A stretch of DNA of 64,000 bases from Vicinamibacteria bacterium. GTDB lineage: Bacteria; Acidobacteriota; Vicinamibacteria; Marinacidobacterales; Marinacidobacteraceae. Both the position numbers and the translations under genes were made by a program. Positions 1,773 to 30,714 of the stretch are shown in pieces. The notes beneath the pieces were generated by a model. It was not told where the DNA came from. It saw nothing but the letters and a program-made list of their open reading frames with translations, and ran no database searches. The stretch covers positions 768,001-832,000 of the forward strand of contig OZ219815.1 in the NCBI GenBank assembly GCA_964291235.2. The letters run 5' to 3'. Within the stretch, counting starts at the first letter, position 1, and each line of letters begins with the position of its first letter.

Positions 1773-1774
1773 GG

Positions 1775-3114: not shown

Positions 3115-3121
3115 TTCAGCG

Positions 3122-3984: not shown

Positions 3985-4289
3985 CTGGTCGTTCTTCGTT
4001 AGCTTCACCCGCCGCTGCACGAATCGCTTCGCCATCGTTCCTAGCCGTCCAATGGCACCCGAAGGGAAGGCTCATCGGGGCCGAGCGCAACCGGTGAGCC
4101 TTGACGCGCCTGCGCTTCAGTCTGCCGCGACGATTCCGGCTGGGGCTTAACCCCTGGGGCAGTTCGTCGGCTCGGGCCCGAGGGGATGATCCGCTCGGGT
4201 CCGAATTCCGTCGGAAGCGAAAAGCGGGCGTTCTTCCTGACGGAGAAGGGCTGACCGGCGCTCGCGGACCTTGAGACGCCTGCGCCGGA

Positions 4290-4545: not shown

Positions 4546-4593
4546 CGGCCGCCGCCGGCTGCAGCGTGAGCGGATCCGCAGAAATCGTGCCGA

Positions 4594-4964
4594 GGTGGAG
4601 GCGGCGGGAATCGAACCCGCGTCCGAAAGCCTTCCGCAACGACGTCTACATGCATATCCAGGTTGTGGCGAGAACCCGCGCCCGGAGGCGCCTTTCCCAC
4701 TTTCGGGCCCGCGCCGCATCAACCCGGCGAATCGCGGCTCGGTCCCTATCCCTGAGGCTTACCGACGGCTCGGGAAGGCCGCCGGCAAAGCCCACCTAGT
4801 CGACGTCCTTTCCCGCCCGGTAGGCGTGGTCAGGAAGGACGTGGCTTAAGCAGCCAGTGCCAGATCGTTGTTGGCGTTTGTGTTTGTTTCCACCGTTTAC
4901 GAGAGGTGGACCCCCGACATGCAATCGTTACTTCATGTGCCTTCGTCGAACCCAGTACGCCCCC
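4594..4964 (-). ncRNA. ssrA: tmRNA; tag peptide (A)ANNDLALAA*
   Basis: 5' GGGGGCG...GGTTCGAC; 3' GCGGGTTCGATTCCCGCCGCCTCCACC; acceptor stem with G3-U pair; internal ORF gcc aac aac gat ctg gca ctg gct gct taa (4876-4847). The terminal A of CCA is not encoded. Confidence 0.97.
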
Positions 4965-10568: not shown

Positions 10569-10950
10569 CTAGCCGGGATTTCTTATACCTCCGCCGCAGA
10601 GATCGATGCACGATGGTTCCCCTTTCGGCGAGAACCCCACCAGCCGTGATGTCCGACAGGCACGGGAACGCCGGCCTCCAGGCCGGCACAGCCCGCCGTA
10701 GGCGGGCGGCGGGATGAACCTGGCTGGCCGGGATGGCTCCCTCTCTCGGTGAGGACCCCGCGAGCGCGACCGGCGAGGAACCGCCCGCGGCGCTACGCGC
10801 CGCTGTGCCGACCTGGAGGTCGGCGTTCCCGTGCCTGTACGCCGTCCGTGCGTTCGGGGTCCGCGTCTGACGCGTGTCTCTCGACATCATCAACAGGTTG
10901 ACGTGATCCGCACGGCACCTTGGGCCATGAGTATGAGAAATCCCGACTAA
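10569..10950. mobile_element. MITE-like element family A, copy 1 (~380 bp)
   Basis: Imperfect terminal inverted repeats CTAGCCGGGATTTCTTATAC / GTATGAGAAATCCCGACTAA; homologous in reverse orientation to 16128-16544; internal REP-like palindrome. Confidence 0.78.
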
Positions 10951-11515: not shown

Positions 11516-12000
11516 GGAGCGCCGGCCTCCGGCCGGCATCGCTTCGCACAGCGAAGCGAAACTCCCGAACCTGTTCGTTCCCCACGGCCGGGACCCAGTC
11601 CGTGACGGTGAAGACCCCAGCGTGCAGGAGGATCGCGCAGCGCTCCTATGCGGAGGTGTGACGATGCGCCGTCGCCGTTTGGGTGGGCGTCGTCGGGGAA
11701 GATTGAGGCAGGGAGTTTCGCGGCCAGGAGCGCCGGCCTTCAGGCCGGCATCGCTTCGCGCAGCGAAGCGAAACTCCCGAACCTGCTCGTCCCCTACGGC
11801 CGGGACCCAGTCCGTGACGGTGAAGACCCCAGCGTGCAGGAGGATCGCGCAGCGCTCCTATGCGGAGGTGTCACGATGCGCCGTCGCCGTTTGGGTGGGC
11901 GTCATCGGGGAAGAGCGAGTCTGGGAGTTTCGCGGCCGGAGGCCGCGATGCCGGCCGGAGGCCGGCGCTCCTGGCCGGCGCGCCTGGCCGGCGCTCCTGG
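11516..12000. repeat. REP/REPIN-like cluster (family B): two tandem ~211-bp units
   Basis: Units start at 11516 and 11727 with GGAGCGCCGGCCT..GGCCGGCA; internal GCGAAACTCCC...GGGAGTTTCGC inverted arms; closes with an inverted REP. Confidence 0.85.
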
Positions 12001-14981: not shown

Positions 14982-16073
14982 CTAGGGCGAAACCGCCGCG
15001 CGACGTCGTTCCGCGTCGAGGAGCGCGCGTTTCCGCTCCAATCCCCAGCGATAGCCGCCCAGGTTGCCGTCCCCCCGCAGCACGCGGTGGCAGGGCACCA
15101 GCACCGCGACGCGGTTCGCCGCGCAGGCCGAAGCAACGGCCCGGGCCGCCCCTGGCTGCTCGATCCGTGCGGCCAGCTCGCCGTAGCTGATCACTTCGCC
15201 GTCCCCCACACTCAGGAGAAAGCGCCAGACGCGCATCTGGAAGGCCGTCCCGCGGAGGTCCAGGGGCAGCTCGGGCCGGGGGGCGCTCCGGCCCAGGTGC
15301 GCCTCCAGTGCCTCGATCCACGCGTCGAGTTCGGGGGCCTCCTGCGCGTCCGACGCGACGAGGGCCGCCTTCGGAAACTCCCGGCGCAGCCGCTCCAACA
15401 GGGTCTCCAGATCCTCCCCGAACTGCGCGAAGCAAACACCGCGTTCGGTGGCCGCCATCAACACGGCGCCGAGCGCCGTGTCCCGCCAGGCGTAGGCGAT
15501 CGTCTCTCCGGCGCCACCGGCGCGATAGGCCTTCGGCGTCATGCCGAGGTTGCGCGGCCGTTCCCCGTACACACGGCTTAGCGACCCGTACCCCGCCGAG
15601 AAAATCGCGCCGGTGACGCCGTCGCCGTCCTTGAGCGACGCCTTGAAGCGCTTCATTCGAACCGCGTCCTGGTACGCCTTGGGCGAGACGCCGAACTGCG
15701 CCTTGAAGACGCGCTGCAGGTACGACGGCGAGAGGCCCACCTGCCCCGCGAGGTCGCGCAGGGTCAGCCGCTCCTTGGCGTGCGCTTCGATGAACCTGGC
15801 GACGCTGACGAGCCGGCCCAACTGCGGCGCGGCGTCGGTGGGGCGACAGCGTTTGCACGGCCGGAAGCCGGCGGTCCGCGCCGACTCCACGTCGGGAAAG
15901 AACCGCAGGTTCTCCGGCCGCGCCGGGCGCGAGGCACAGGAGGGACGGCAGAAGACGCCCGTGGTGGTCACCGCGTAGAGAAAGAGATGGTCGGAGGTCT
16001 GGTCGCGCGCCGCAACGGCAGCGCGCATTTTGTGTTCGGATGGCATCGGCATGGTTTCAGCTCCCGACGTCAT
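14982..16073 (-). CDS. ada: Bifunctional Ada regulator / O6-methylguanine-DNA methyltransferase
   Basis: TTGVFCRPSC...GFRPCKRC Zn site, AraC HTH, GTAFQ, VPCHRV active site. Confidence 0.96.
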   Translation of the reverse strand: MTSGAETMPMPSEHKMRAAVAARDQTSDHLFLYAVTTTGVFCRPSCASRPARPENLRFFPDVESARTAGFRPCKRCRPTDAAPQLGRLVSVARFIEAHAKERLTLRDLAGQVGLSPSYLQRVFKAQFGVSPKAYQDAVRMKRFKASLKDGDGVTGAIFSAGYGSLSRVYGERPRNLGMTPKAYRAGGAGETIAYAWRDTALGAVLMAATERGVCFAQFGEDLETLLERLRREFPKAALVASDAQEAPELDAWIEALEAHLGRSAPRPELPLDLRGTAFQMRVWRFLLSVGDGEVISYGELAARIEQPGAARAVASACAANRVAVLVPCHRVLRGDGNLGGYRWGLERKRALLDAERRRAAVSP

Positions 16074-16127: not shown

Positions 16128-16544
16128 CTAGCCGTATTTCTCGTACTCATGGCCCAAGGTGCCGCGCGGATCACGTAGACCCGTTGATGATGTCGGGAGA
16201 AACGCGGCAGGTACGGACCCCGACCGCACGGACAGCGTGTAAGCACGGGAACCCCACCGGGAGAACTGTGCCGACCTCCAGGCCAGTTCTCCCGGTGGGG
16301 GCCGGCACAGCGGCGCGCAGCGCCGCGGGCGATTCCTCGCTGCTCGCGCTCACGGGGCCCTGTCCGAGAGAGGGAGCCATCCTGGCTAGCCAGGTCCGTC
16401 CCGCCGCCCGCCTGCGGCGGGCTGTGCCGGCCTGGAGGCCGGCGTTCCCGTGCCTGCCCGATATCAAGGCTGGTGGGGTTCTCGCCGAGAGGGGAACCAT
16501 CCTGCATCGATCTCTACGACGGAGGGATGAGAAATCCGGGCTAG
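16128..16544. mobile_element. MITE-like element family A, copy 2 (inverted, ~415 bp)
   Basis: CTAG at both ends (16128-16131 and 16541-16544) with ATTTCTC/GAGAAAT TIR core; reverse-complement homolog of 10569-10950. Confidence 0.78.
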
Positions 16545-17648: not shown

Positions 17649-19874
17649 TTACGGATCGACTTCGAAGACGAAGCGCATGCCGGCTTCGAGGTGCTCGGCG
17701 ATGTGGCAGTGGGCCATCCACTTCCCCGGGTTCGTGATCTCGAGCAGGAGGTCCACGGTTTCTCCGGCGGGGATGAGCACCGTGTCCTTGAAGACCTGAT
17801 TCGTGACCGGCGTGCCGTTCCGGCGCAGCACCAGGAAACGCTGGCCGTGGATGTGGAAGGGGTGCTGCATCGCGTGGAGCGCCGCGGCGTCGTTTCCGAT
17901 GCGGATCGTCACGACGTCGCCGATCCGGAAGCGCCAGGCGATATCCATGTCCTCATGGCCGGTGGCCGGTTCGCGCACGATCCAGCGGACCTCCTCCGGG
18001 GTGGCCACCGAGTTCATCATCGGCATGGTGTCCGCCCACTCGACCGCCGGGAAGAACACCCGATCGGCACGCATGCGCTGCATGATGGCCGGCTCGAGCC
18101 CGGCGACATCCATGGTGAGCAGGAGTTCGTAGTCCGGGGCGCGGTCGAAATGAGCGCGGAAGCGGTCCACATCCTCCACGACCGGGGCGTTTTCCCGTAA
18201 CGCCTCGTAGTCCGGGGCGCCCGCCGGATCGGCGTCGCGGTCGCGGACGGTCACCGTCCCCAGCCGGGTCACCCGGGAGAAATAGCTCCCGAAGGTGTGC
18301 TCCAGCGGACGCACCCGGTTCTCGAGGGCGTGCTCTCCCGCGGACTCGTAGCGAACCTCCACGATGTAGCGCTCGGCCGGGGCCAGCGTCACCGAATCCA
18401 CCCAGGTCTCGCGTTCGAACTTGGAGAGGTCCGACCCCACGACCTTGATCCGGTGCGTCCCCGGCTCGCCGAACGAGAGGTTGAAGGTGCGCGTGTTCGA
18501 GACGTTGGTGAGGAAGAAGCGGACGACCTCGCCGCGATCGAGACGCACCTCGTACCCGGGTTCGCCGTTGACCAGCATCAGGTTGCCGAAACGCCCCATG
18601 AGCGAGTGGGTGGCGCGCTCGGTCCCCCAGGGAAAGAGCCCCCCGTCGTCGGCGACCAGCAGGTCGTCGAGCATGAGGATCTCCTCGCGGTGGACCGGGG
18701 CGTACCACTCGTCCGGCGGCGCCTCCACCAGCATGTTCCCGTAGAGCCCGAGGTCCTGCTGCACCTCCTCGCGGTGGTGCGGGTGGTACCAGTAGAGACC
18801 GGCGTCCGGAAAGAAGATCCGGTACTCGAAGCGTCCGCCGGGGGGCACCGGATCCTGGGTCAGGTGGGGCACGCCGTCGAAGGCGTTGTCGAGCCGCACC
18901 CCGTGCCAGTGGATCGCCGTCGGCCAGGAGGTCTGGTTCTCGAAGTTGACGAAGATCGTCGAGTCCTGGTCCACGTGGATGAGCGGTCCGGGGTACTGCT
19001 CGTTGAACCCGTACATCACGTAGTCGCGGCCGTGGATGGTCCTCCGGACCCGGCCCGCGATCAGGTCGAGCGTCTGGCCGTCCTGGAGGCGCACGACCTG
19101 CGAGGGCACGGCGTCCGGGAGCGTTTCGTCGGCGGTCACCCGGGGCAGGAACGGCAGCGGCTCCGGCCGCAGGTGGCCGAGGCCGGGGACCATGGGCGTC
19201 TCCGGCAGCATCGGGGGATGGGACCAGGCGGGCGCGTCGGAGGCTGCCCCGTGCCCCATCGCGGCGTGATCCATCGCCTCGTGATCCATGGTCAGCGCGC
19301 CGCTCTCGCCGCTGCCGCTCACCGGCACCATGAGGTGGTTGTCGGGAAGGATGCGGGTTGAGGGCGATGCGCCGCGGAGCGCCAGCCGGCCGGTCCGGGT
19401 CTCGACCGCCGCCGAGGACTCGGCGCTCACCAGGATCACGAACTTGTCGAAGGCGACCGGCCCGAGGCCCGCGAAGGTTCCGTTCCCGACCTCGCCGAGC
19501 CGGACCACCGGGTCCATGACCGGAGTGGTCGCCCACGCCACGTAGGTCTCGAAGTCGCCGAGCGAGCCGGGCTCGGGAAGTCCCTCGATCTCCAGGTCGA
19601 GCCGGTAGCGCTGGCTCCCGTCCCGGGTCACCGAGACGCCGAAGGGGCTCGGATCCCAGCGGAGGAAGGCGGTACCGCCCGCGGGCGCCAGGTCCGGGGT
19701 CGGGTAGAGGGCGATGCGGTTGAGACCGGGGGCGCCCCAGTCCTCGCGGTCAGGCGCGGGAGGCTGGGAGGCGGCTGGCGGCGGATGCAGCAAAGCCGCC
19801 GCCCAGAGGATGAGCAACGGCACGATCCGGCGGCTTCCGGCGCTTGGCGGCAACCTCTTCTTCTCCTGGCGCAT
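17649..19874 (-). CDS. Multicopper oxidase with an N-terminal extension and Met/His-rich linker
   Basis: IHWHG, YWYHPH, HPFHIHG, HCHIAEHLEAGM; linker MDHEAMDHAAMGH. Confidence 0.94.
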   Translation of the reverse strand: MRQEKKRLPPSAGSRRIVPLLILWAAALLHPPPAASQPPAPDREDWGAPGLNRIALYPTPDLAPAGGTAFLRWDPSPFGVSVTRDGSQRYRLDLEIEGLPEPGSLGDFETYVAWATTPVMDPVVRLGEVGNGTFAGLGPVAFDKFVILVSAESSAAVETRTGRLALRGASPSTRILPDNHLMVPVSGSGESGALTMDHEAMDHAAMGHGAASDAPAWSHPPMLPETPMVPGLGHLRPEPLPFLPRVTADETLPDAVPSQVVRLQDGQTLDLIAGRVRRTIHGRDYVMYGFNEQYPGPLIHVDQDSTIFVNFENQTSWPTAIHWHGVRLDNAFDGVPHLTQDPVPPGGRFEYRIFFPDAGLYWYHPHHREEVQQDLGLYGNMLVEAPPDEWYAPVHREEILMLDDLLVADDGGLFPWGTERATHSLMGRFGNLMLVNGEPGYEVRLDRGEVVRFFLTNVSNTRTFNLSFGEPGTHRIKVVGSDLSKFERETWVDSVTLAPAERYIVEVRYESAGEHALENRVRPLEHTFGSYFSRVTRLGTVTVRDRDADPAGAPDYEALRENAPVVEDVDRFRAHFDRAPDYELLLTMDVAGLEPAIMQRMRADRVFFPAVEWADTMPMMNSVATPEEVRWIVREPATGHEDMDIAWRFRIGDVVTIRIGNDAAALHAMQHPFHIHGQRFLVLRRNGTPVTNQVFKDTVLIPAGETVDLLLEITNPGKWMAHCHIAEHLEAGMRFVFEVDP

Positions 19875-19950
19875 GGCAGTGGTTTCGGGATTCGAATGGT
19901 ACCGGCGGGGTGAGCGCAACCCGCGGCCCGGAGGCTGTTAGATTGCGAAG

Positions 19951-20568
19951 ATGACCGGCGTACGAATCCTCTTTCTCAGCGGCGCTCTGGCGACGCTCTC
20001 ACTCCCCGTAGCGGCGGAGGACGAGACCCTCGTTCTCGACAACGACTACGCTGCGGTGCACCGCAACGCCGCGCCGTGCGCGGACGCGGGTCCTGGCTGC
20101 GGGGAGCGGATCATCGTCGCTTTCGGCGAACTCAGCGTCGTGCCCGCGAACGGCTCGCCGGTCCCGCTGGCCTACGCCGAGGTCTTCGTGGCGCCGGCGG
20201 GCGCGACGTATGAAGTCCGGGGCTCGGAATTCGCCGAAGTCAACCTGAAGCCCGGTCCCCCGCCGGTGGATGGGCCGGAGGTCGCGATCGCCGCGGGGAA
20301 GAACGAGCGGCTTCACGACGCCGAGGACTACTTCGTGTTCGAGGAGCGGCTCGAACCGGGCGACACCCGGGAACGTCACTCGCACGCCCAGCGGGTGGTG
20401 CTGGTGATGGGGGCCACCGAACTCCAGCAGTGGCCCGACGGCGCCGACGAGGTCTTCAAGACCCAGGTCCCCGGCACCATCAAGTTCAACCCGCCGGTCG
20501 TGCACATCGTGAAGAACACCGGGGACGCGCCGCTCCGGAACATCGTCATCGAGCTGATTCCCCGCTGA
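19951..20568 (+). CDS. Exported cupin-domain protein
   Basis: Signal peptide; LEPGD..RHSH and VVHIVKNTG...NIVIEL cupin motifs. Confidence 0.78.
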   Translation: MTGVRILFLSGALATLSLPVAAEDETLVLDNDYAAVHRNAAPCADAGPGCGERIIVAFGELSVVPANGSPVPLAYAEVFVAPAGATYEVRGSEFAEVNLKPGPPPVDGPEVAIAAGKNERLHDAEDYFVFEERLEPGDTRERHSHAQRVVLVMGATELQQWPDGADEVFKTQVPGTIKFNPPVVHIVKNTGDAPLRNIVIELIPR

Positions 20569-20571
20569 TCA

Positions 20572-22852
20572 GTGAACCGCTGGGTGGCAGCTTTCGCCGC
20601 GGCGCTCGTGGCGGGAGCCGCCGCCGCGGACACGCGCGTGACGGGCCAAGTGGTCATCGCCACCAGTGGAGCACCCGCCGCGGGCGCCGAAGTGGTGCTG
20701 GCGGAGTCGGGCCAACGCACCCATACCAATGGAGAGGGGCAGTTCGTCTTCGAGCAGGTGGACCCGGGCGCCGGCATCACCATTCACGTTCATCTCGGTC
20801 TGCTGGTCGGGGAATCGGTATTCGTTCCGGACCTCCCATCCGGGACTGAAATCGCGCTCCCCGACCCGATTCGCATCGCCTTTCTGGGTACCCGGCACGA
20901 ACACGTCACGGTGACCGCTGCCTCCGGTGAGCCCTCGGGGTTCGGAGTCTTCGGATCCGTGTCCTCTTTCGAGGATCTCGAGCTACTGGAGGGGGCTCCG
21001 AGCCTCGCCGAGCTGCTCGAAGGCACGCCCGGCGTCGCGATCCGCAGCCTCGGTCCGGGGCCTGCCCGCCCCATCATCCGGGGGTTCGACGGCGACCGGG
21101 TGCTGGTCACCGAAGACGGCGTGCGCACCGGAGACATCGGAAGCCAGGCCGCCGAGCAGGGAACGATCGCGGATCCCACCCAGGCGGAGCGGATCGAGGT
21201 CGTACGGGGGCCGGCGGCCCTCCTCTACGGGACCAACGCCGTCGGGGGGGTGGTGAACCTGGTCTCCATGGGTTCTCGGCTGGCGCACGGAGAGATCTCC
21301 GGATTCCAGGGCCGCGCCAGCGTCAGCGCGGCAAGCGCGGACGATGGGCGCTACGGCGGCGCGCGGGTCCGGACGGGCGGCGGGGGATGGTTCGCGTGGG
21401 GCGGCGGCAACACCCGGAGAACCGGTGACTACCGGTCGCCGGTGGGCCGCATCGCCGGCTCCCGGACCGCCCTCGGCCAGGGCGAGGCGGGTTTCGGGCT
21501 CCTGAGCGACCGCGCCTACCTCTCGGCCGGCGTCCGTCTCGACGACAGCGAGTACGGAGTGCCGCTCGCGGGAATGCTCCACGGCGCCGAGGCAGAAGAG
21601 CTCGAAACCGTGGACGTGGCGATGCAGCGACGCCAACTGCGCACCGATTTCGGACTCCGTGGCCTCGGAGACATCTTCGAATCGGCGGCGTTCACGGTGC
21701 GCTACAGCGCGTTCGGCCAGGACGAGATCGAGAAGGAGGGGGACGGCCCTCCCGAACTCGAAACCCACCACGACAACCGCTCGCTGGTCTTCCGGGGCGA
21801 GCTCGAACGATCCGCGGGCCGAATCCAGGGCCGGCTGGGCGGGTGGGCGAACCTGCGGGAGTTCACCTCGGCGGGTCCGGAGGCGCTGGCTCCCGATACC
21901 CGCCATACGGCGCTGGCCGCTTTCGCGCTGGGCGAACTCCAGGCCTCGGACCGCCTCAGCCTGCTGCTCGCCGCCCGGGTCGAGAACAACGCCTATGACG
22001 CTGATGACCGTCCGGAGCCGGGTGAAGCCGACGATGATGACGACGACGGGGCACCGGAGGAAGACGGAGACTTCGAACCGCCCGCGGTGGTGGACCGCGA
22101 GTTCCTGGGCATTTCGGCGAGCGCCGGGTTGCGAGTGGACCTGGGGGCGGAGAGCGCCCTCGTCGGCACGGCGACGGTCTCGACCCGCGCCCCGGCGCTG
22201 GAGGAGCTCTACAACTTCGGTCTCGATGCCGGCACCCAGGCCTTCGAGATCGGGAACCCGCTGCTGGAGGCGGAGCGTTCCCGCGGATTCGATCTGAGCC
22301 TCCGGCGCGACTCCGACACCTTCGCCGGCAGCGCCGGCGTCTTCTGGTACGGGATCGCGGGCTTCACCTACGGGGCGACGACCGGAGGCCGCGGCGGGGT
22401 GACGGTGATCTCGACGGAACAGGCCGATGCGCGGCATCTCGGTTTTCGAGGTGGACGGACGGGTGCGGCTCGGGGCCGCCGATCTCACCGCGAGCGCTTC
22501 CCGGGTCGATGCGAGGTTCCCCGAACTGGGACAGCACGCGCCGCGGATTCCGCCGCTGAGCGGTCAGGTGGCGCTGGACCTTCCGGTGGGGGGCCTGCGA
22601 ATCGCGCCGCGGCTGCGGTGGGCCGCCCGTATGGATCGCCTCTACGCCGGGGAGACGCCCACGGACGGGTACACGGTCCTCGACCTGACGGTCTCCTGGC
22701 TGCTCCTCACCGGGAACGCGACCCACCACGTCTCGGTGGTGGGCCACAACCTGACGGACGCCGTGTACCGGCACCACACCTCGGTGATCAAGAACGTGGC
22801 GCCGCAGGTGGGACGGGGAGTGCGGGTCAGCTATTCGGTCCGGTTCTTCTAG
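20572..22852 (+). pseudogene. ZnuD-like TonB-dependent receptor with a +1 frameshift near 22445 (pseudogene or sequencing error)
   Basis: ARPIIRGFDGDRV, IEVVRGPAALLYG plug motifs. ORF 20572 loses similarity to the 24877 paralog at GGTTTTCGAG (paralog GGATTCGAG); the other frame resumes FEVDG...VSYSVRFF*. Confidence 0.88.
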
Positions 22853-23210
22853 AGCGGATTTCTCATACTCACGGCCAGCCAGGTCCGTCCCGCCGCCCGC
22901 CTGCGGCGGGCTGTGCCGGCCTGGAGGCCGGCGTTCCCGTGCCTCCGTGACGTCAGCGCTGGGGGGATTCCGTCCCGCCGCCCGCCTGCGGCGGGCTGTG
23001 CCGGCCTGGAGGCCGGCGTTCCCGTGCCTCCGTGACGTCAGCGCTGGGGGGATTCCGTCCCGCCGCCCGCCTGCGGCGGGCTGTGCCGGCCTGGAGGCCG
23101 GCGTTCCCATGCCTGCACGACGTCAGGGCTGGGGGGATTCCGGCCTGCCGCCCGCTTGCGGCGGGCTGTGCCGGCCTGGAGGCCGGCGCTCCGACTCGGT
23201 CCGGCTCTAG
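22849..23210. repeat. Family A-derived element holding ~3.6 tandem copies of an 85-bp REP-containing unit
   Basis: Units start at 22885, 22970, 23055 and 23140; the first two are identical; bounded by CTAG at 22849 and 23207; the left end carries the family A TIR (GGATTTCTCATACTC). Confidence 0.87.
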
Positions 23211-23274
23211 AGCGACAGCCCAGTCGCCTGCTCCCCGTGCGAGTGTTAGCATCGCTGGCTACAGATTCTCCGCG

Positions 23275-23553
23275 ATGAAGCGCATCGGCCTCCTCCCCAG
23301 GTTCCTGGCGGCGGCTGCCGTGTTGGCGTTGCTGTTCGCGGTTCCGATCGGGGTGCTCGCGCACGAGCATTCCGATCAGGGCGAATCGCAGTGCCGGATC
23401 TGCAAGGTCTCCGGGTCGGAAGCCGCCGTCTTCAACGACGGACCCTCGCTGCAGGCTCCCGCGAGCGATGCCGGACTCCACATCCGTGGAGTTCAGCTCG
23501 TTCCGGATGAGCCGGCCGCGGTCCCCGGAGCGCCCCGCGCACCGCCCGCCTGA
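23275..23553 (+). CDS. DUF2946/CruR-like leader protein (TM/signal, HxH, CxxC, C-terminal RAPP), 92 aa
   Basis: MKRIG...VLAHEHSD..SQCRIC...PGAPRAPPA*; ends 92 nt upstream of a TonB receptor start. Confidence 0.82.
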   Translation: MKRIGLLPRFLAAAAVLALLFAVPIGVLAHEHSDQGESQCRICKVSGSEAAVFNDGPSLQAPASDAGLHIRGVQLVPDEPAAVPGAPRAPPA

Positions 23554-23645
23554 GGGTCGGCACCCAGGTCGCGAACCGTTCGGCCCCGTCGGCGGCCTCT
23601 GAACGTTCGGTTCCTCCGCACCCGAAGCCCTCAGGAGGTTCCACC

Positions 23646-24128
23646 GTGCTGCGCAATCGCTCCGCTTCCTCGATGGATCACGGGGAAGCGGGAGTCGGGT
23701 TTCCTGGCGACCGCTTCTGGTTTTCCGGCAGCGCGCGGCTGGACGACTCCCGGTACGGCGTTCCCTTCACGGGTGAATTCCATGGTGCGCGCGGGCATGA
23801 AGAAGAGGGCGAATACCACGACGAGCAGGAGGGAGGGCACCACCACGCAGAAGAGGAAGGAGGCGAACGCCACGACGAAGAGGAGTTGTCGTTGGTGGAC
23901 GTCGCCATGAACCGGCGCCAGTTGCGCACCGATTTCGGAATACGGAACTTGGGGACCGTCTTCGATGAAGCCGAAATCACCGTGCGCTACAGCGACTACG
24001 GCCAGGGTGAAATCGAAACCCCGGCCGCTGGCGGTCCGGAAGAAGTCGCAACCCACTTCGACAATCGTTCCGTCGTACTCCGGGGCGAGCTGAAGAAGCC
24101 GGCTGGCAGGGTCACCGGCCGGATGGGA
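23646..24128 (+). pseudogene. Internally deleted and truncated ZnuD-like TonB receptor with a His/Glu-rich loop
   Basis: GTG-LRNR start matches the paralog's MRNR and jumps straight to the SM..GEAG.G region (about 25820 in the paralog); similarity ends at the MITE at 24129. Confidence 0.85.
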
Positions 24129-24314
24129 CTAGCAGCCTGTGGTGAAACCCCGGTGAGCGCCGAAAGTGGCGAGGCGTCCGGCTGACAAGGCGCGTGAGGG
24201 AGGAATACCGGGTGTATTGCGACCGAAACGCAACGATGAGCGCCGCAAGCGGCGCGGTTCAGACGGGATGCATCGCCGCTTGAACGCCGCGGGGGTTTTG
24301 CCACAGGCTGCTAG
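24129..24314. mobile_element. MITE family C (186 bp including CTAG ends)
   Basis: CTAGCAGCCTGTGGTGAAACCCC ... GGGGTTTTGCCACAGGCTGCTAG: 23-bp TIR with 2 mismatches; no coding capacity. Confidence 0.85.
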
Positions 24315-24504
24315 GGCTCAGGCGCCTTCACGCTGTCCGTGCGGTTGGAGTCCGCCCCTGACGCATGTCTCCCGACCTCATCAGCAGGTTGGTGGATCTG
24401 CGCGGCAACTCGGGCCATGGGAGTGAGAGATCCCGGCCAGGGATGACGCAGTCGCGTTGCGCCGCGTGCGGGCGTTAGCATGGTCGGTTGCAGGTCCACA
24501 CGCA

Positions 24505-24783
24505 GTGAAGCACAACGGCCGTCCTTCCAGATTCCTGGTGGCGGCAGCGGTTTTCGCGCTCCTGCTCGCGGCCCCGCTCGGGGTGCTCGCGCACGAGGAT
24601 TCCGATCAAGCGGATTCACAGTGCCGGATCTGCAATGCCTCCGGGGTGGAAACCGCTGTCTTCCACGACGGCCCCGCGCTGCCGACTCCAGAAAGCGGCG
24701 CCGGACCCCACAGCAATGGGGTTCAGCTCGTTCCGGATCCGCCCGCCACGGCTCCCGGGGCGCCCCGCGCACCACCCTCCTGA
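24505..24783 (+). CDS. DUF2946/CruR-like leader protein, copy 2 (CxxC, C-terminal RAPP), 92 aa
   Basis: GTG start; ...VLAHEDSD..SQCRIC...PGAPRAPPS*; same length as copy 1; ends 93 nt upstream of the intact receptor. Confidence 0.82.
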   Translation: MKHNGRPSRFLVAAAVFALLLAAPLGVLAHEDSDQADSQCRICNASGVETAVFHDGPALPTPESGAGPHSNGVQLVPDPPATAPGAPRAPPS

Positions 24784-24876
24784 CGGTCGGCACTCCCAGT
24801 CGGGAACCGCTCGGCCCCGTCGGCGGCCTCTGAACGTCCGGTTCCTCCGTCTCCAGAGACCACCGGAGGTTCCACC
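24784..24876 (+). promoter_or_regulatory. Conserved structured spacer with anti-SD (putative translational attenuator); paralog at 23554-23645
   Basis: CCTCCG can pair with the SD CGGAGG; an overlapping alternative helix GGAACCG/CGGTTCC is present; both are retained in the two copies. Confidence 0.55.
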
Positions 24877-27183
24877 GTGATGCGGAATCGCGTCCTTTCC
24901 TCTCCTCTTCTCCGTTCCCTCCGGCGGGCTGGTGTGCTCGCCGGCTGCCTCACCTTCGCGACCGCCGCCGGGGCTCATCCGACGATCTCGGGCACGGTGG
25001 TCATCGCCGAAACCGGGGAACCGGCGCACGACGCCGAAGTCCTGCTGATCCAGACCGGCCAGGTCGTCCATACCGACGACGACGGCCGCTTCGCGTTCGC
25101 GGACGTGGACCACATCGGTTCCGTCACGATCCACGTGGATCTCGGCTTCCTCAGCGCCGTCCGCACCGTGGTGATCGACGCTGCACAGGAGGAGGACTTC
25201 GAAATCGGCGAGCCCATCGTCCTCGGGGCGCGGCACCGGATGCACGAACGGGTCACGGTCAGCGCTTCGGCCAGCGATTCGTCGCCGTTCCAGGCTTTCG
25301 GTTCGGTGCACTCCCTGGAGGGACTTGACCTTCAGAACGAGTCGGCGCGCAACCTCGCGGAGTTGCTGGAGAGCACCACCGGGGTGGCGATGCGCAGTTT
25401 CGGACCCGGCTCGGCGCGCCCGATCGTGCGCGGCTTCGACGGGGACCGGGTGCTCATCATGGAGGACGGCGTGAGGACCAGTGATCTGGGCAGCCAGTCA
25501 GCGGACCACGGAGTTCCGGTGGACCCGCTTCAGGCCGAACGGGTCGAGGTCGTGCGGGGACCGGCGACGCTGCTCTACGGGTCGAACGCCATCGGCGGCG
25601 CCGTGAACGTGATTTCCATGGCGTCCCACCTGGCGCACTCACCGCCGCCCGGATTCCGGGGGCAGGCCAACCTCGACTACTCGACCGCCGACGAGGGCAT
25701 CAGGGGAGGCGTTCGCGCCCAGACGTCCGGCGCGGGCTGGTTCGCCTGGGGCGGGGGCAACTCGAACCGGACCCAGGACTACAACTCCCCCGCCGGGGTG
25801 GTCGAGAACTCGGGAGGTTCCATGACGCAGGGAGAGGCGGGGCTCGGCCTCTTCGGCGAGCGCGCCTGGATCTCGGGTAGCGTGCGCATGGACGACTCCC
25901 GCTACGGCGTTCCGTTCGCGGGAGACTTCCACGGGGCCAGCCACGCGGGGCACGACCACGGACCGGTCGAGGACGAGGGGGAACTGTCCGTAGACGTCAC
26001 GATGGACCGGCGGCAGGTCCGCACGGACTTCGGGCTCCGCGACCTCGGATTCCTGTTCGACGAGGCGGAATTCACGGTCCGGTACAGCGACTACGACCAG
26101 GACGAGGTCGAGGCCTTCGCGGGCAGTGGAACGGAATTCGTCGCGACCCACTTCGACAACCGATCCGTCGTCCTCCGCGGTGAGCTCAAGAAGCCCGCCG
26201 GCCGGGTGCAAAGCCGGGTCGGGGTCTGGGGACACCTGCGGGAGTACGAGGCATACGGGGAAGAGGCCCTGGCGCCCCGCACGGACCAAAACGCGCTCGC
26301 GGCCTTCACCTACAACGAAATCAAGGCGAACGAAGGACTCGATCTGCTGCTCGGAGCGCGCGTCGAGCGAAACGCCTACGACGTCGGGGAAGACAGCAAC
26401 CCGCTCCGCCCGGCGGCAGTGATGGACCGCGACTTCCTCGGCACCTCGGCGAGCGCCGGAGCCCGCCTCGCGCTGGGTGATTCCACTGCGGTGGTCGCTG
26501 TCGCCAGCCTCGCCACCCGGACGCCCTCGCTGGAGGAGCTCTACAACTTCGGCCCCCACGTCGGGAACCTGGCGTTCGAGATCGGCGATCCCCGACTCGA
26601 CCCGGAACGGTCGCGGGGGTTCGACCTGAGCCTCCGGCAGAGTTCGGAAGCGCTCACCGGGAGCGTCAGCGCCTTCCGCTACGACATCGCCGACTTCATT
26701 TTCGGAGAGGCTCGCGAAGGAATGATCAGCGGGCTGCCCGTCCTCGTATTCCTGCAGTCGGACGCGATCTACCAGGGATTCGAGGTCGAGGGACACCTGA
26801 GCCTCGGCGACGCCGAGCTGGTGGCGAACGCCGCCTACGTGGACGCCAAACTCAGCACCGGTGAGTACGTCCCGCGCATCCCCCCGCTCGGCGGACAGGT
26901 GAAGCTGGATGTCCCGGTCGGCAAGCTGCGCCTCGCTCCCCGGATGCGCTGGGCGGCGCGCATGGATCGCCTGTTTCGGGGCGAGACGGCGACCGACGGC
27001 TACGCCCTGTTCGACTTCACCGCCTCCTACGTGTTCGTCGGAGGGCACGTGACGCACAACATCTCGCTCCGCGGCTACAACCTAACCGACGCCGAATACC
27101 GGCACCACACCTCGCTGATCAAGGACCTGGCCGCCCAGATGGGCCGGGGCTTCCGGGTCAGCTATTCGCTCAGGTTCTTCTAG
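24877..27183 (+). CDS. ZnuD-like TonB-dependent receptor (intact) with His-rich loop
   Basis: N-terminal carboxypeptidase-like domain, plug motifs, HGASHAGHDHG loop, C-terminal YSLRFF. Confidence 0.92.
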   Translation: MMRNRVLSSPLLRSLRRAGVLAGCLTFATAAGAHPTISGTVVIAETGEPAHDAEVLLIQTGQVVHTDDDGRFAFADVDHIGSVTIHVDLGFLSAVRTVVIDAAQEEDFEIGEPIVLGARHRMHERVTVSASASDSSPFQAFGSVHSLEGLDLQNESARNLAELLESTTGVAMRSFGPGSARPIVRGFDGDRVLIMEDGVRTSDLGSQSADHGVPVDPLQAERVEVVRGPATLLYGSNAIGGAVNVISMASHLAHSPPPGFRGQANLDYSTADEGIRGGVRAQTSGAGWFAWGGGNSNRTQDYNSPAGVVENSGGSMTQGEAGLGLFGERAWISGSVRMDDSRYGVPFAGDFHGASHAGHDHGPVEDEGELSVDVTMDRRQVRTDFGLRDLGFLFDEAEFTVRYSDYDQDEVEAFAGSGTEFVATHFDNRSVVLRGELKKPAGRVQSRVGVWGHLREYEAYGEEALAPRTDQNALAAFTYNEIKANEGLDLLLGARVERNAYDVGEDSNPLRPAAVMDRDFLGTSASAGARLALGDSTAVVAVASLATRTPSLEELYNFGPHVGNLAFEIGDPRLDPERSRGFDLSLRQSSEALTGSVSAFRYDIADFIFGEAREGMISGLPVLVFLQSDAIYQGFEVEGHLSLGDAELVANAAYVDAKLSTGEYVPRIPPLGGQVKLDVPVGKLRLAPRMRWAARMDRLFRGETATDGYALFDFTASYVFVGGHVTHNISLRGYNLTDAEYRHHTSLIKDLAAQMGRGFRVSYSLRFF

Positions 27184-27194
27184 AGGAACGCGTG

Positions 27195-27635
27195 GAGCGC
27201 CGGCCTCCGGCCGGCATCGCGGCCGCAGGCCGCGAAACTCCCAGACCCAGTGGTCCCCGATGACGCCGGCCCAAACGGGGACGGCGCATCGTCACACTGC
27301 CGCATAGGAGCGCCGGCTTCCAGCCGGCATCGCGGCCGCGGGCCGCGAAACTCCCCTCGCTGATGTTCCCTGCCGCACCGCAGCCCAACTCCGTGGCGCA
27401 ACGCGACTCAGGCGGACGAAGAGCGTCGCGCCGTCCCCGTTTGGGTTGGCGCCGTCAAGGCTGACTGAGTCTGGGAGTTTCGCCTCGCTGCGCTCGGCGA
27501 TGCCAGCCAGAGGCTGGCGCTCCTTGGCACGTGGGGGGCCTCGCCGTCACGGACAGCGTCCGGGCCGTGGGGAACGAACAGGTTCGGGCGTTTCGCTCCC
27601 CGGTGGGGAGCGATGCCGGCCGGAGGCCGGCGCTC
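27195..27635. repeat. REP/REPIN-like cluster (family B) between convergent receptor genes
   Basis: Four GGAGCGCCGGCCT..GGCCGGCATCGC-type palindromes, two in each orientation, with GCGAAACTCCC arms. Confidence 0.85.
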
Positions 27636-27639
27636 CAAC

Positions 27640-30600
27640 CTAGAACCGCAGGCTGATTCCTACCTGCCCCCGCCGGGTATCGCCGAGCCCGCTGCGGAGC
27701 GATCCGTCGAAGTTGAAGAGCAGCGATCCGGTGTGGCTGTCCAGGAAGTTGTCGGAACCGGTGAGATTGAAGACCTCGAGGATCGGCTCGACGGTGGCGC
27801 CGTTCGGCAACGTGAAGGCGCGTGAGATCCTGAGATCCCAGGTGAAGAACTCGTTGTCGCGCCGCAGCGTGTTCCGGGTCAGGATGGATCCATCGGCGCA
27901 GATGCGGTCCGAGGGCTGATCCGCCCGTTGGCCCGGGCGCGCGCACGCCTCGGAGGCGGGGGAGGCCGACAGGTAGCGGAACACGTTGTTCCAGCTCAGG
28001 TCGCCCGGCAGGGTGATGAGCAGGTAGCCGCTCACCTGGTGGCGGCGGTCGCGGTCCGACCAGCCGAACTCGGGGCCCAGGTTCGAGGCATCTGCGTAAC
28101 GGAAGGTGAAGGGATCGCGCTCGTTGTCGTCGTCCGAGCGATCGAAGGCGAGGGTGTAGTGCGTCTCGAAGGTCAGCGGCCGGTTCCCGAGCGAGCTCCA
28201 GCCGCGGAGCCCGATGGTGAGCGCCCGGTAGCGCGAGCGGGCGCTGCTCTCGGCGACGGTGAGGGCGTTGATGCCGCCGCCGGAGGGGTGGGTGCCAATC
28301 CCGAACGGCGCGCCGAAGGCGGCGTCGTTGCGGTTCACGAACCGGAAGAGCTGGTCGGTCCGGGCATAGACGAAGTTGGCGCTCGCCGCCATCCCGCGAC
28401 CCAGGTCCCGATCCAGCCCGAGACTGAAGGACCAGGTCCGCGGCAGCTCGAGGTTCCGGTCGGCAACCTGGATGTCCGGCAGGAACGGGGGCGTGGTCGA
28501 AGCGTCGAGCTGCCGGTCGATCTCGGGGACCGGACCGAGGAAGGTGTCGGCGCTGCTGCGGAACAGGGTCTGCTGGAAGGCGCCGTTCGTGGAGCGGTGC
28601 TGGGCGAAGACCAGCATCGGGATCCGCGAGACGTAGGAGCCGGCTGCCGCGCGAGCCACGGTGCGGCCGTCGCCGGCGAGATCCCAGGCCACCCCGAGGC
28701 GCGGCTGCAGATTGTCGAGGTCGTTCGGGATCCGCCCGTCCGACGGGAACGCCGGGTCGTCGAGATAGGGCGCGAAGAAGGTGTCTTCCGGTTCGACGAA
28801 GACGTCGGGATGCCAGGTCCCGTCCCAGCGGAGTCCCAGATCCAGCGTGACGCGTTCGCCGGGGTGCCAGGTGTCCTGCAAGAACAGGCCGACCTCATGC
28901 ATGGTTGCCTGCTGGAGCCCGAGCTCGGCCGCGGGGATGCCGGGGACCGTCGCCGATTGCAGGTAGAGAAGCACCGGGCCGGTGATCGCCGCGCCTTCCG
29001 GACAGGCGCCGGCGGTGCCCGCGGACCCGTCCGAGCAGTGCACGTAGCCGCTGCCGTGGGTGACGAAGCCGACGAATCCCTCGACCGAATCGAAGATGTA
29101 GCGGCTGTTCGCCATCCCGATGAACTGCTGCTCCACCCGGGTGCGGTTGTATTCGACCCCGGCCTTGAAGAGATGGGCGCCGGTGGCGTAGGACAGGTTG
29201 TCCACGAGCTGGAACCGATCGTCGGAGCCCGGATCGATGGGCAGGAAGAACGGGAGCCCGATCCGGAAACCGTCGGCGAAGTCCATGGCGATGTCCGGGA
29301 ACGGCCGGCCGCCGAGGCGGTCGAACTGGGGCTGGCCGGGATGCTCGGCTCCCGGCAGGAGCGGGCCGTCGTACCAGCGCGGCCGATCCTCCCGGGCCCA
29401 CTGGATCCGCAACTCGTTCGAGAGCGCGTTGGTGAGCAGCGAGCGGAGGCTCCCGTTCACCGCGTGGGAGTGGTCGCCCTCGATGCCGTTCGCCGAACTG
29501 CCCCAGGAGTCCACGTCGAAGGTGCCGTTCACCTGTTCCGACCAGGTGTAGTTGTATTTGAGCGAGGCCTGGTGGCGGCCGCTCAGGTTGAAGTCCAGCT
29601 TGGCGAGGAGCGACCGGGCGTCGTCGGTGCGGCGGATGGGCCCGAACTCGCCGTCGAAGAGACCGGGCCAACGGGACTGGAGGAAGGCGTCGAGGCGTTC
29701 CAGGTTCGCCGGGTTCGCGACGCGGCGGGTGGTCTGCTTGGTCTCGGATGCCCCCTGCTGGTCGTAGGCCAGGAAGAAGAACGCCCGGTCGCGGGCGAGC
29801 GGGCCCCCGACGGTGGCCCCGAACTGGTTCCGCCCGAAGTCCGGTTTTCCGCCGCCCCGGTCGGCGGAGTACTCGGCCGCGATCTCGTCCCACTGGCCGA
29901 AGTAGTGGCCCGAGCCGCCGAGGTCGTTGGTCCCCGATTTGGTGATGACGTTGATGAAACCGCCCGCCGAGCGGCCGAACTCCGCGGGAGCGCCCTGGTT
30001 CACGATGACCAGCTCGCCGATGGCGTCCTGATTGAAGGTGAACGCGGACCGCTGGCCACCGCGCTGCTCCCCGAAGAAGGGGTTGTTGAAGTCGGCGCCG
30101 TCCACGATGAAGTTGTTGAAGATGCCGCGCTGGCCGTTGATATTGAGCTCGTCGCCGTCAGGACCCTGAGAGATGGAGGCGCCCGGGGTGAGGAGGGTCA
30201 GATCCACGAAGTTGCGGCCGTTGCTCGGCACCGCGTCCACGACCTCTTCGGTGAGGCGCTGGGAGCGGGTGAAGTCGGTGGTTTCGATCGGGGACGGCAG
30301 TTCGCCGAAAACGGTCACCGTTTCGGTGGCCACGATCCGGAGATCGAGGTGGAAGTGGAGCACCTCGCCCACTCGCAGGATCGCGCCTTCGATGCGCTCG
30401 GCCCCGAATTCTCCGGCGGCGGTCACGGTGAGGTCATAGGTGCCCGGGGGCAGCAGACTGCGGACGAACTTCCCGTCGGGGGACGTCTCGACCGTCGTGG
30501 CCAGATCGGTGCCGCGGTGCTGGATCAGGACGATTGCCGCCGGAACCGGATTGCCGAGCGGATCGCTCACCTCGCCGCGAATGACGCCGGTGGTGGTCCC

Positions 30601-30714
30601 CGCCTGGGCGGCGAGATCCGGGGCGTGCAGGCAGACGAGGGCGAGCGCCAGGAACCACCCGGCCCCCGGCCGGAACCGTCCCGGTTTTCGTTTCTTCCCG
30701 CCCCGAAGACCCAC
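27640..30714 (-). CDS. Oar-like TonB-dependent receptor with carboxypeptidase-regulatory N-domain
   Basis: GRNFVDLTLLTPG, AEFGRSAGGFINVITKSGTN, QPRLGVAWD, C-terminal ISLRF. Confidence 0.92.
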   Translation of the reverse strand: MGLRGGKKRKPGRFRPGAGWFLALALVCLHAPDLAAQAGTTTGVIRGEVSDPLGNPVPAAIVLIQHRGTDLATTVETSPDGKFVRSLLPPGTYDLTVTAAGEFGAERIEGAILRVGEVLHFHLDLRIVATETVTVFGELPSPIETTDFTRSQRLTEEVVDAVPSNGRNFVDLTLLTPGASISQGPDGDELNINGQRGIFNNFIVDGADFNNPFFGEQRGGQRSAFTFNQDAIGELVIVNQGAPAEFGRSAGGFINVITKSGTNDLGGSGHYFGQWDEIAAEYSADRGGGKPDFGRNQFGATVGGPLARDRAFFFLAYDQQGASETKQTTRRVANPANLERLDAFLQSRWPGLFDGEFGPIRRTDDARSLLAKLDFNLSGRHQASLKYNYTWSEQVNGTFDVDSWGSSANGIEGDHSHAVNGSLRSLLTNALSNELRIQWAREDRPRWYDGPLLPGAEHPGQPQFDRLGGRPFPDIAMDFADGFRIGLPFFLPIDPGSDDRFQLVDNLSYATGAHLFKAGVEYNRTRVEQQFIGMANSRYIFDSVEGFVGFVTHGSGYVHCSDGSAGTAGACPEGAAITGPVLLYLQSATVPGIPAAELGLQQATMHEVGLFLQDTWHPGERVTLDLGLRWDGTWHPDVFVEPEDTFFAPYLDDPAFPSDGRIPNDLDNLQPRLGVAWDLAGDGRTVARAAAGSYVSRIPMLVFAQHRSTNGAFQQTLFRSSADTFLGPVPEIDRQLDASTTPPFLPDIQVADRNLELPRTWSFSLGLDRDLGRGMAASANFVYARTDQLFRFVNRNDAAFGAPFGIGTHPSGGGINALTVAESSARSRYRALTIGLRGWSSLGNRPLTFETHYTLAFDRSDDDNERDPFTFRYADASNLGPEFGWSDRDRRHQVSGYLLITLPGDLSWNNVFRYLSASPASEACARPGQRADQPSDRICADGSILTRNTLRRDNEFFTWDLRISRAFTLPNGATVEPILEVFNLTGSDNFLDSHTGSLLFNFDGSLRSGLGDTRRGQVGISLRF

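Follow-up and report, generated by a model that had tools for sequence, protein, structure and literature searches.

The locus described here raises the question of whether two small open reading frames that precede TonB-dependent receptor sequences are genuine leader genes, whose nascent peptides would sense a metal and stall the ribosome, or whether their resemblance to such leaders has another origin. Both lie in the window (the whole stretch of DNA that was analysed, 64,000 nucleotides of contig OZ219815.1 from a Vicinamibacteria bacterium, 68% G+C); a first-pass annotation of the same DNA had named a probable acidobacterium as the source, and this holds. The features at issue are as follows.

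23275-23553, plus strand: leader 1, ATG start, 92 codons and stop, with HEH, CRIC and RAPP-A-stop; orphan copy
23646-24185, plus strand: 179-codon relic of a TonB receptor with a His/Glu loop (blastn, tblastn)
24129-24314, no strand assigned: MITE-like element, 186 nt, with 23-nt terminal inverted repeats and CTAG on both flanks (repeat search)
24505-24783, plus strand: leader 2, GTG start, 92 codons and stop, with HED, CRIC and RAPP-S-stop; heads the intact receptor
24877-27183, plus strand: intact TonB-dependent receptor, 768 aa, GTG start, with CarboxypepD_reg, plug and barrel (Pfam)

The two ORFs were found just as the first-pass annotation had described them, of equal length (92 aa) and with a hydrophobic segment, H-E-(H/D), CRIC and PRAPP(A/S)-stop. 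HEH or HED occupies residues 30–32, CRIC 40–43 and RAPP 88–91, followed by A or S and TGA, and 44 residues separate the CxxC from the R in both. Their N-termini are of a predicted export type, with basic residues and then a hydrophobic stretch (residues 10–28 in both, Kyte-Doolittle 19-residue means 2.66 and 2.62). The AlphaFold model shows an N-terminal helix at residues 6–30 (pLDDT 95 in residues 11–20), while the rest of the chain is of low confidence (mean pLDDT 64.9), which would suit a regulator acting as a nascent chain better than a folded protein. The leaders share 67% protein identity, and the DNA of the two copies is 80% identical over 455 nt (23221-23671 vs 24449-24902). As a control for chance we counted R[AG]PP motifs no more than 3 residues from a stop in all six frames of the window and of 200 dinucleotide shuffles. 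Alone, the motif is common by chance (6 seen, 3.0 expected); together with a CxxC 42–47 residues upstream it was seen twice against 0.015 expected, and none of the 200 shuffles reached two.

Two protein searches together with six related loci yielded 41 distinct sequences, which form a small family in acidobacteria; 40 of them carry the whole motif set. The CxxC is present in 40 of the 41, the sole exception being a frameshifted prediction, and C40 and C43 are invariant in all 26 aligned sequences. H[ED]H stands in 39 of the 40 members, a 7-residue gap separates HxH from CxxC in 35, and the CxxC-to-R distance, for which member P0030 was scored by its terminal motif, is 44 residues in 37 (45 in two, 46 in one). 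Every one of the 40 ends in R(A/G)PP (36 RAPP, 4 RGPP), A to G or the reverse being the only change seen at the second position, and the tail after it is one residue and a stop in 39 (seven residues in the other). All 8 genomic leader copies are exactly 92 codons long, with the frame kept and an ATG or GTG at the same position; dN/dS over 28 pairs was 0.25–1.07, mostly 0.3–0.6, and the family can be detected as protein down to about 30% identity. The first-pass annotation had also suggested that HEH and HED tune two working copies differently. The basis for this is gone, as the HEH copy is an orphan and HED is a singleton among the 40 members.

The distances described earlier, 92 nt (leader 1) and 93 nt (leader 2) from the leader stop to the next GTG, each GTG preceded by GGAGG, are correct, but an intact receptor stands behind leader 2 only. 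Calling this receptor ZnuD-like was apt: ZnuD is both its best NCBIfam family (NF038289, best of 30 families matched, E 1e-53) and its best solved-structure match (ZnuD of Neisseria, PDB 4rdr, 4.7e-24), though with 183 bits, where the curated cut-off is 950, it is not a ZnuD orthologue, and it has an N-terminal CarboxypepD_reg domain that ZnuD does not. A His-rich loop (about residues 352–372, 4 His) follows a conserved YG(V/L)P strand and sits at the same place as that of ZnuD, query residues 353–372 falling in an alignment break that faces ZnuD 260–318. In ZnuD the loop binds zinc.

Behind leader 1 there is a relic that consists of about 5 start codons and then a match to about residues 312–450 of the intact receptor, with 7 His in its loop. 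About 300 N-terminal and 320 C-terminal residues are missing, and with them the plug, signal peptide and C-terminal barrel; no Pfam family matched this ORF. The receptor homology stops at 24129, where the MITE-like element starts. Copies of this element, 76–91% identical, occur in loci L005, L006 (3 copies) and L004, and an Rfam search with it gave no match. We take leader 1 to be the surviving orphan of an older duplicate, whose receptor was lost by a 5' internal deletion and a 3' truncation at the MITE-like insertion.

The wider neighbourhood comprises the following features.

17652-19919, minus strand: multicopper oxidase, 756 aa (Pfam Cu-oxidase_2 8.2e-29, Cu-oxidase_3 1.4e-28)
19951-20568, plus strand: cupin-like secreted protein, 205 aa (Pfam Cupin_2 20.4 bits, under the cut-off of 27.2)
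20572-22852, plus strand: leaderless TonB-dependent receptor paralogue, frameshifted (tblastn, query the intact orthologue of L002; DNA aligned with L001 and L002)
22884-23192, no strand assigned: tandem repeat, unit 85 nt, about 3.6 copies, separating the leaderless receptor from leader 1 (repeat search)
27640-30714, minus strand: outer-membrane barrel protein, 1024 aa, convergent (Pfam OMP_b-brl_4 1.4e-66)

The multicopper oxidase that had been placed beside the leaders is indeed present, but it does not adjoin them: it lies about 3.4 kb upstream of leader 1 on the opposite strand, and between the two stand the cupin-like gene and a third receptor, which is frameshifted and has no leader. 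It has a Met/His-rich stretch near residues 195–234 and matches NCBIfam CueO at 1.2e-35, below that family's cut-off. The order multicopper oxidase, cupin, leader and His-loop receptor is syntenic in 6 related acidobacterial genomes, and in 7 of 7 genomes the leader is the first gene before a TonB receptor, at spacers of 87–102 nt. The oxidase is a conserved neighbour in L002–L006 and the outer-membrane barrel gene is syntenic in L003–L006; the cupin-like gene has orthologues in all 6 loci and directly precedes the leader in L003–L006, and in the window the leaderless receptor. In this leaderless receptor one surplus T, within a T-run near 22441–22445, breaks the frame (tblastn frame switch at about 22445); the loop of the receptor is short, with 1 His. 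Loop His counts are 3–7 in all 7 leader-linked receptors and the relic, and 1–2 in the 3 leaderless paralogues. More copies of the 85-nt repeat lie at 16395-16477 and 10636-10714 and in related loci.

To which class, then, do the leaders belong? The Pfam DUF2946 profile (PF11162), which the first-pass annotation had proposed as a check, did not recognise them at its curated cut-off: leader 1 scored 10.9 bits (E 0.79) against a gathering cut-off of 23.7 and leader 2 had no match, nor did any of 26 family members scanned reach 23.7 bits (best 17.6). Sub-threshold matches to DUF2946 appeared in 11 of these 26, all in a single register that aligns residues from about 30 to 91 with profile positions 52–55 through 117 of 117. 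Among the named clusters of the ESM Atlas, the top one (score 0.95, 192/256 features) has PF11162 on 54% of its members, and 10 of the best 30 named matches fall in the PF11162 set. A family profile search of 1.84 billion representatives picked up no more than 18 proteins at E<=0.001 and failed to extend to canonical DUF2946. On sequence grounds, the leaders look like divergent members of the known class of metal-sensing, ribosome-stalling leader peptides. We consider it probable (roughly 0.7) that both ORFs are real leader genes of the CruR/CutF type, from an acidobacterial subfamily just under the DUF2946 threshold, and that leader 2 controls the receptor.

The closest parallel is CruR (Bp2923 of Bordetella pertussis, PMC9426467), which the first-pass annotation had rightly described as an upstream ORF of the DUF2946 kind, having CxxC and RAPP, that places a TonB receptor under copper control. 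Common to both are a small first ORF before a TonB-dependent transporter, an export-type N-terminus, a CxxC together with a RAPP at the C-terminal end, a long spacer of the non-coupling kind and a C>G bubble, a candidate rut site, which stretches from the ORF's 3' part into the spacer. The CxxC-to-RAPP spacing is 44 residues in the leaders and 45 in CruR, where it is conserved within 1–2 and an insertion of 5 residues breaks regulation (PMC9426467); CruR regulation stays intact after deletion of the signal peptide. The leaders differ from CruR as there described in length (92 vs 145 aa), in a RAPP that is 1 rather than 3 residues from the C-terminus, in the spacer to the receptor (92 vs 162 nt) and in an extra near-invariant HxH 7 residues before the CxxC. 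Their receptor is ZnuD-like with a His-rich loop and no PepSY_TM gene after it, while the CruR target is of the CrtA/BfrG type. They are also acidobacterial and under the Pfam cut-off, unlike CruR, and the string 'Acidobacteri' occurs 0 times in the text of Table S1 of PMC9426467. Like ApdA and ApdP (PMC10951233; PMC12992588), the leaders are small proteins of export type that carry an R(A/G)PP core close to the C-terminus, but ApdA and ApdP are described as monitoring the Sec/YidC machinery and as having no metal motif, which the leaders do carry; no protein-localisation gene of the ApdA/ApdP kind lies downstream, the gene after leader 2 being a TonB-dependent receptor by Pfam. RAPP and RGPP are the two strongest experimentally found arrest cores (PMC12992588), and uORFs with either have been surveyed before TonB-related genes throughout Gram-negative bacteria (PMC10951233; PMC12992588).

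The sequence around the leaders carries further conserved elements.

23247-23252, plus strand: TAGCAT box of leader 1, after TGT; candidate extended -10 promoter element
23572-23614, plus strand: spacer hairpin, copy 1, conserved, with GAACCG ... CGGUUC arms and an inner GGCC stem
23613-23638, plus strand: copy 1 CCUCC anti-Shine-Dalgarno (23613-23617) opposite the GGAGG Shine-Dalgarno (23634-23638)
24476-24481, plus strand: TAGCAT box of leader 2, after CGT instead of TGn
24803-24845, plus strand: spacer hairpin, copy 2, conserved, with GGAACCG ... CGGUUCC
24844-24869, plus strand: copy 2 CCUCC anti-Shine-Dalgarno (24844-24848) and GGAGG Shine-Dalgarno (24865-24869)

TAGCAT is invariant in the upstream regions of all 8 leaders, preceded by TG(T/C) in 7 of them; a scan for consensus promoters did not call the box of leader 1. 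The spacer between leader and receptor is better conserved than the leader ORF itself. C exceeds G in 8 of 8 copies, by 0.04–0.13 in the spacer and by 0.02–0.16 in the 3' half of the leader (weakest in L002), part of this C excess being due to Pro and Ala codons; in the receptor genes the excess is about 0.

From these features a CruR-like sequence of events can be proposed. The ribosome would arrest once Pro90 occupies the P site and Pro91 the A site, the two Pro codons of CruR being placed likewise in its arrest (PMC12992588). The CxxC (40–43) and HxH (30–32) would then sit 47–60 residues from the peptidyl-transferase centre, hence outside the exit tunnel and free to meet metal. The arrested ribosome would keep occupied the C-rich, G-poor stretch made up of the leader's 3' half and the spacer, and transcription would continue into the receptor gene; metal on the nascent chain would free the arrest, whereupon transcription would end by Rho-dependent termination (or translation downstream would be lost), and plentiful metal would thus turn the importer off. 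The sensed metal would be copper or zinc, and the read-out Rho termination or Shine-Dalgarno shielding.

Shielding is central to an alternative within the same family, in which the leader is exported co-translationally and periplasmic metal on HxH/CxxC prolongs the arrest, opening a CCUCC:GGAGG stem and turning the receptor on. This is how CutF of Rhodobacter capsulatus acts before a multicopper oxidase (PMC9973294; bioRxiv 10.1101/2025.02.05.636593). CutF also resembles the leaders in its Sec signal, conserved here as a Sec-type N-terminus, in a Cys/His metal motif, an arrest sequence rich in proline at the C-terminus, a stem that could shield a downstream Shine-Dalgarno and a multicopper oxidase in the neighbourhood; CutF-like clusters whose motifs are made of Cys, of His or of both, as well as neighbours of TonB-like type, have already been reported (PMC9973294; bioRxiv 10.1101/2025.02.05.636593). 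All 8 copies could form the anti-Shine-Dalgarno helix (96% of cells paired), and an extended hairpin that uses GGUUCC is predicted to compete with it. The Shine-Dalgarno is predicted to be paired to the conserved CCUCC in both modelled states (P unpaired 0.00–0.23), which may point to a layer of control at translation, something the Rho model leaves unexplained. Covariation speaks neither for nor against the helix, as its columns barely vary. Support for the RNA structure is slight: its sole compensatory column (UA in 4, CG in 4) probably records one event, and sequences folded singly did no better than shuffles (z -0.40 to +0.79). What makes this alternative unlikely is that the anti-Shine-Dalgarno lies about 60 nt past the stop, beyond the reach of a ribosome arrested at codons 90–91, and masking the ribosome footprint left the Shine-Dalgarno paired in 8 of 8 models; an importer switched on at abundant metal would also make little physiological sense. 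CutF itself has CxxxC and PPP, is placed directly before its oxidase and is induced to stall by copper (PMC9973294; bioRxiv 10.1101/2025.02.05.636593), whereas the leaders have CxxC and RAPP, a divergent oxidase 3.4 kb away and an importer as target.

Could the 92-aa products instead be secreted metal-binding peptides, acting for instance as a chaperone in the periplasm or as a partner that delivers substrate to the receptor, with RAPP incidental? Besides the export signal and the conserved His/Cys ligands, the residues before HEH suit a signal-peptidase site in most members, and cleavage would leave an N-terminal X-X-His. Such an N-terminus is the ATCUN copper/nickel motif. Yet a fold is predicted for the signal helix alone, no maturation enzymes are encoded nearby, and the features held most rigidly, namely the length of the spacer and a terminal R(A/G)PP with one residue after it, matter to a ribosome and not to a mature peptide. 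The CruR and CutF products were moreover reported as undetectable in vivo (PMC9426467; PMC9973294), and we regard the idea as very improbable. That the ORFs are untranslated, their conservation being that of an RNA or DNA regulatory element with motifs arisen by chance in G+C-rich DNA, is scarcely credible: the frequency of R[AG]PP by stops and a spacer conserved above the ORF would suit it, but the rarity of the full motif in shuffled windows, the constant frame, length and start, the dN/dS values and a family recognisable at protein level do not.

Within the preferred reading of CruR/CutF-type leaders, one version concerns the metal itself. HxH-x7-CxxC may form a site of two His and two Cys through which the nascent chain senses zinc or another non-copper metal and controls the ZnuD-like receptor, the oxidase being an unrelated copper gene. 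We consider this version rather unlikely; if true, it would give the first zinc sensor among nascent peptides, and the CruR/CutF class would include a switch of metal specificity.

We found two open reading frames of 92 codons in the metal locus of the window, both carrying the motifs that the first-pass annotation had described for them. The features of the locus are as follows (window positions).

20572-22852, plus strand: leaderless receptor, the third receptor, directly after the cupin gene and with no leader
23275-23553, plus strand: leader 1, ATG start, 92 codons, HEH
23646-24185, plus strand: relic ORF after leader 1, keeping a Shine-Dalgarno sequence, GTG and about five codons
24129-24314: MITE-like element of 186 nt, flanked by CTAG on each side; terminal inverted repeats of 23 nt
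24505-24783, plus strand: leader 2, GTG start aligning with the ATG of leader 1, 92 codons, HED
24877-27183, plus strand: intact receptor after leader 2, 768 aa, with CarboxypepD_reg domain, plug and TonB barrel (Pfam)

The two leaders are 67% identical in protein and lie in a duplicated DNA block (23221-23671 and 24449-24902; 455 nt, 80% identity) that starts about 55 nt 5' of the ORF and runs through ORF and spacer into the opening codons of the gene that follows, the spacer being more conserved between the copies than the ORF. Both begin with basic residues and a hydrophobic stretch at residues 10-28 (hydropathy 2.66 and 2.62), followed by H-E-H (leader 1) or H-E-D (leader 2) at residues 30-32, C-R-I-C at 40-43 and a C-terminal P-R-A-P-P with one further residue before TGA. 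An R[AG]PP beside a stop is not rare in the window DNA (6 observed versus 3.0 expected), but its combination with a CxxC 42-47 residues upstream was seen twice against 0.015 expected per window, and none of 200 shuffles gave two.

These leaders belong to a small and tightly conserved family. A word-indexed protein search retrieved 15 proteins, whose identities were 66-100% and which lacked any Pfam domain; with a 26-sequence profile at E<=10 it gave 21 proteins, all of the same family and again without any Pfam domain. When a profile of 16 sequences was run in a full HMMER pass against 1.84 billion representatives, only 18 proteins appeared at E<=0.001, and a tblastn search of 72,556 plasmid records with leader 1 as query (E<=10) gave one meaningless match (E=8). 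Scanning of genomes recovered six related loci (L001 to L006), each with one leader and all from Acidobacteria MAGs (Vicinamibacteria, 'Candidatus Marinacidobacterium'); with the two leaders of the window they make eight genomic copies, every one exactly 92 codons long (dN/dS 0.25-1.07).

The whole motif set is present in 40 of the 41 distinct sequences, among which H[ED]H occurs in 39, a seven-residue gap from HxH to CxxC in 35 and a single tail residue after R(A/G)PP in 39. The distance from CxxC to the arginine is 44 residues in 37 of the 40, 45 in two and 46 in one, and the arrest core is RAPP in 36 and RGPP in four. The 41st sequence (P0022, from another genome, found in the full HMMER pass) departs from the frame that encodes RAPP and continues into the spacer; its tail corresponds to frame +2 of the spacer in the window. 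Either the leader is frameshifted or the sequence contains an error. From the 26-sequence alignment AlphaFold2 predicted the N-terminal helix alone, the remainder being of low confidence (mean pLDDT 64.9).

Among the 40, HED is unique to leader 2, which lies in front of the intact receptor; at codon 32 (24598-24600) this leader differs from leader 1 by one base (C to G), which replaces the second histidine by aspartate. At residues 29-32 (23359-23370 and 24589-24600) most members have a small residue before H-E/D-H, e.g. V-L-A before HEH, though not universally, since position -1 is L, F or V in four. Signal-peptidase cleavage at this point would leave an N-terminal X-X-His, as in the ATCUN motif, a Cu(II)/Ni(II) site.

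A TonB receptor had been proposed behind each leader. This holds for leader 2, where the Pfam domains are found in 24877-27183, whereas only a relic follows leader 1. After its first five or so codons the relic skips ahead, continuing with what corresponds to about residues 312-450 in the intact receptor. Pfam gave no match for it, and its homology stops at 24129, where the 186-nt element starts. A 4-bp CTAG target duplication is typical of IS5-type elements. Further copies of the element lie in L005 (5789-5975), L006 (2288-2472, 885-1082 and 5846-5974) and L004 (1-65), so it is mobile or at least dispersed; it is 76-91% identical across genomes, the best copies being better conserved than the surrounding genes. 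It contains an internal 24-nt direct repeat (24151 and 24234), has no Rfam match and, in L005 and L006, abuts the TAGCAT box (see below) of the leader on the upstream side. Copy 1 has decayed, leaving one working leader copy and one orphan. A recent tandem duplication was rejected, given that leader 1 is nearer to the L001 leader (84% in DNA) than to leader 2 (80%), and is also ruled out by the relic, 67-69% identical to the receptors of L003, L004 and L006 versus 61% to the adjoining one.

Compared with L001 and L002, the leaderless receptor has one T too many in a T-run near 22441-22445, which breaks its frame; either the mutation is real and the gene a true pseudogene, or a homopolymer was misread in sequencing. 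Between this gene and leader 1, about 3.6 tandem copies of a palindrome-rich 85-nt repeat occupy 22884-23192; it recurs in the window (16395-16477, 10636-10714, 10802-10836 and 11727-11750) and in L001, L002, L005 and L006, behaving like an extragenic repeat family.

Synteny extends beyond the leaders. L003 to L006 share the order multicopper oxidase (minus strand, with a Met/His-rich stretch), cupin-like gene, leader, receptor and large convergent barrel protein, and L001, L002 and the window have an additional leaderless receptor between cupin gene and leader. ZnuD is the best family of the intact receptor (183 bits, E 1e-53, far under the cut-off of 950 bits, against 40.6 bits for the copper receptor model) and its best solved structure (4rdr, 4.7e-24), with the alignment breaking exactly at a His-rich loop. 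The ZnuD loop has a zinc-binding role. There are 3-7 histidines in this loop in the relic and in all seven leader-linked receptors, versus 1-2 in three leaderless paralogues. L001 has a second receptor with a His-rich loop (7 His; from 8669-8908 onward), which follows the leader-linked one on the same strand without a leader of its own, and one leader may there govern two receptors.

No further metal genes were seen in the 64-kb window. An Ada-type regulator/methyltransferase upstream of the locus (14985-16073, minus strand; Ada zinc-binding, AraC HTH and 6-O-methylguanine methyltransferase domains) appears unrelated to it. A tmRNA gene (4593-4964, minus strand; 160.5 bits; tag peptide ANNDLALAA) adjoins a stretch of lower G+C (1-4000; 0.57-0.61 versus about 0.69 elsewhere), which may be an island integrated at this gene.

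Upstream of the leaders, a TAGCAT box about 25 nt 5' of the start is invariant in all eight copies, seven of which have TG(T/C) before it, making it a candidate extended -10 element; a consensus promoter scan called no sites, this box included. The spacers (87-102 nt) have in common a G+C-rich hairpin with arms GGAACCG and CGGUUCC (96% of cells pair; one compensatory column, UA in four and CG in four) and a CCUCC able to pair with the GGAGG Shine-Dalgarno sequence, the two helices competing for GGUUCC. Single-sequence folds of both window spacers were no better than shuffles (z -0.40 to +0.79), Rfam found nothing in the locus (19000-28500 at E<=1; whole window at gathering scores), and a terminator scan (3 sites versus 1.2 expected) placed no intrinsic terminator in either spacer. 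C exceeds G from the 3' half of the leader through the spacer in 8/8 copies. The idea of a simple switch, with a stalled ribosome freeing the Shine-Dalgarno sequence, gained no support from constrained folding: with known ribosome footprint sizes and the footprint at codons 90-91, that sequence stayed paired in every copy.

An arrest leader of this architecture is CruR of Bordetella pertussis, an upstream ORF of the DUF2946 family having CxxC and RAPP 45 residues apart, conserved within 1-2, in which copper relieves arrest and a C>G bubble with Rho-dependent termination in the spacer silences a TonB transporter (PMC9426467). In CutF of Rhodobacter capsulatus, another DUF2946 member, periplasmic copper induces stalling, opening a stem that masks an oxidase's ribosome-binding site; CutF-like clusters have Cys, His or mixed motifs, some with TonB-like neighbours (PMC9973294; bioRxiv 10.1101/2025.02.05.636593). 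The strongest arrest cores are RAPP and RGPP; when CruR arrests in vitro, its two proline codons occupy the P and A sites, and upstream ORFs with these cores precede TonB-related genes throughout Gram-negative bacteria (PMC12992588); the structural mechanism has been described (PMC10951233). The string 'Acidobacteri' does not occur in the available text of Table S1 of the CruR paper (PMC9426467).

The acidobacterial family shows every motif, spacing and context feature looked for in the CruR/CutF class but not the Pfam score: the DUF2946 model (PF11162), suggested earlier as a check, did not reach its curated cut-off on the leaders or on any of the 26 family members scanned, and NCBIfam assigned neither leader to a family. 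Kinship to DUF2946 is supported by 11 weak matches among family members, all in a single register, and by ESM Atlas neighbours. Judged by sequence, the leaders are new, sub-threshold acidobacterial members of this class of metal-sensing arrest peptides. Ribosomes would arrest at RAPP, HxH and CxxC would sense the metal, and metal would repress the importer with Rho as the putative effector. The oxidase points to copper as the sensed metal, and the ZnuD-like receptor with the two-His, two-Cys ligand set points to zinc.

These results extend the CruR/CutF class into Acidobacteria, where the family has been left unannotated because the Pfam model misses its sequences; for annotation, they also caution that a 'duplicated operon' may be one working unit and one decayed unit. 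The rigid length (92 codons), spacing (44 residues) and tail (one residue) provide a clean natural data set on the distance that a sensing motif must keep from the peptidyl-transferase centre, and metal specificity could be probed through the additional invariant HxH. The class, until now studied with copper transporters, is linked here to ZnuD-like, His-loop receptors.
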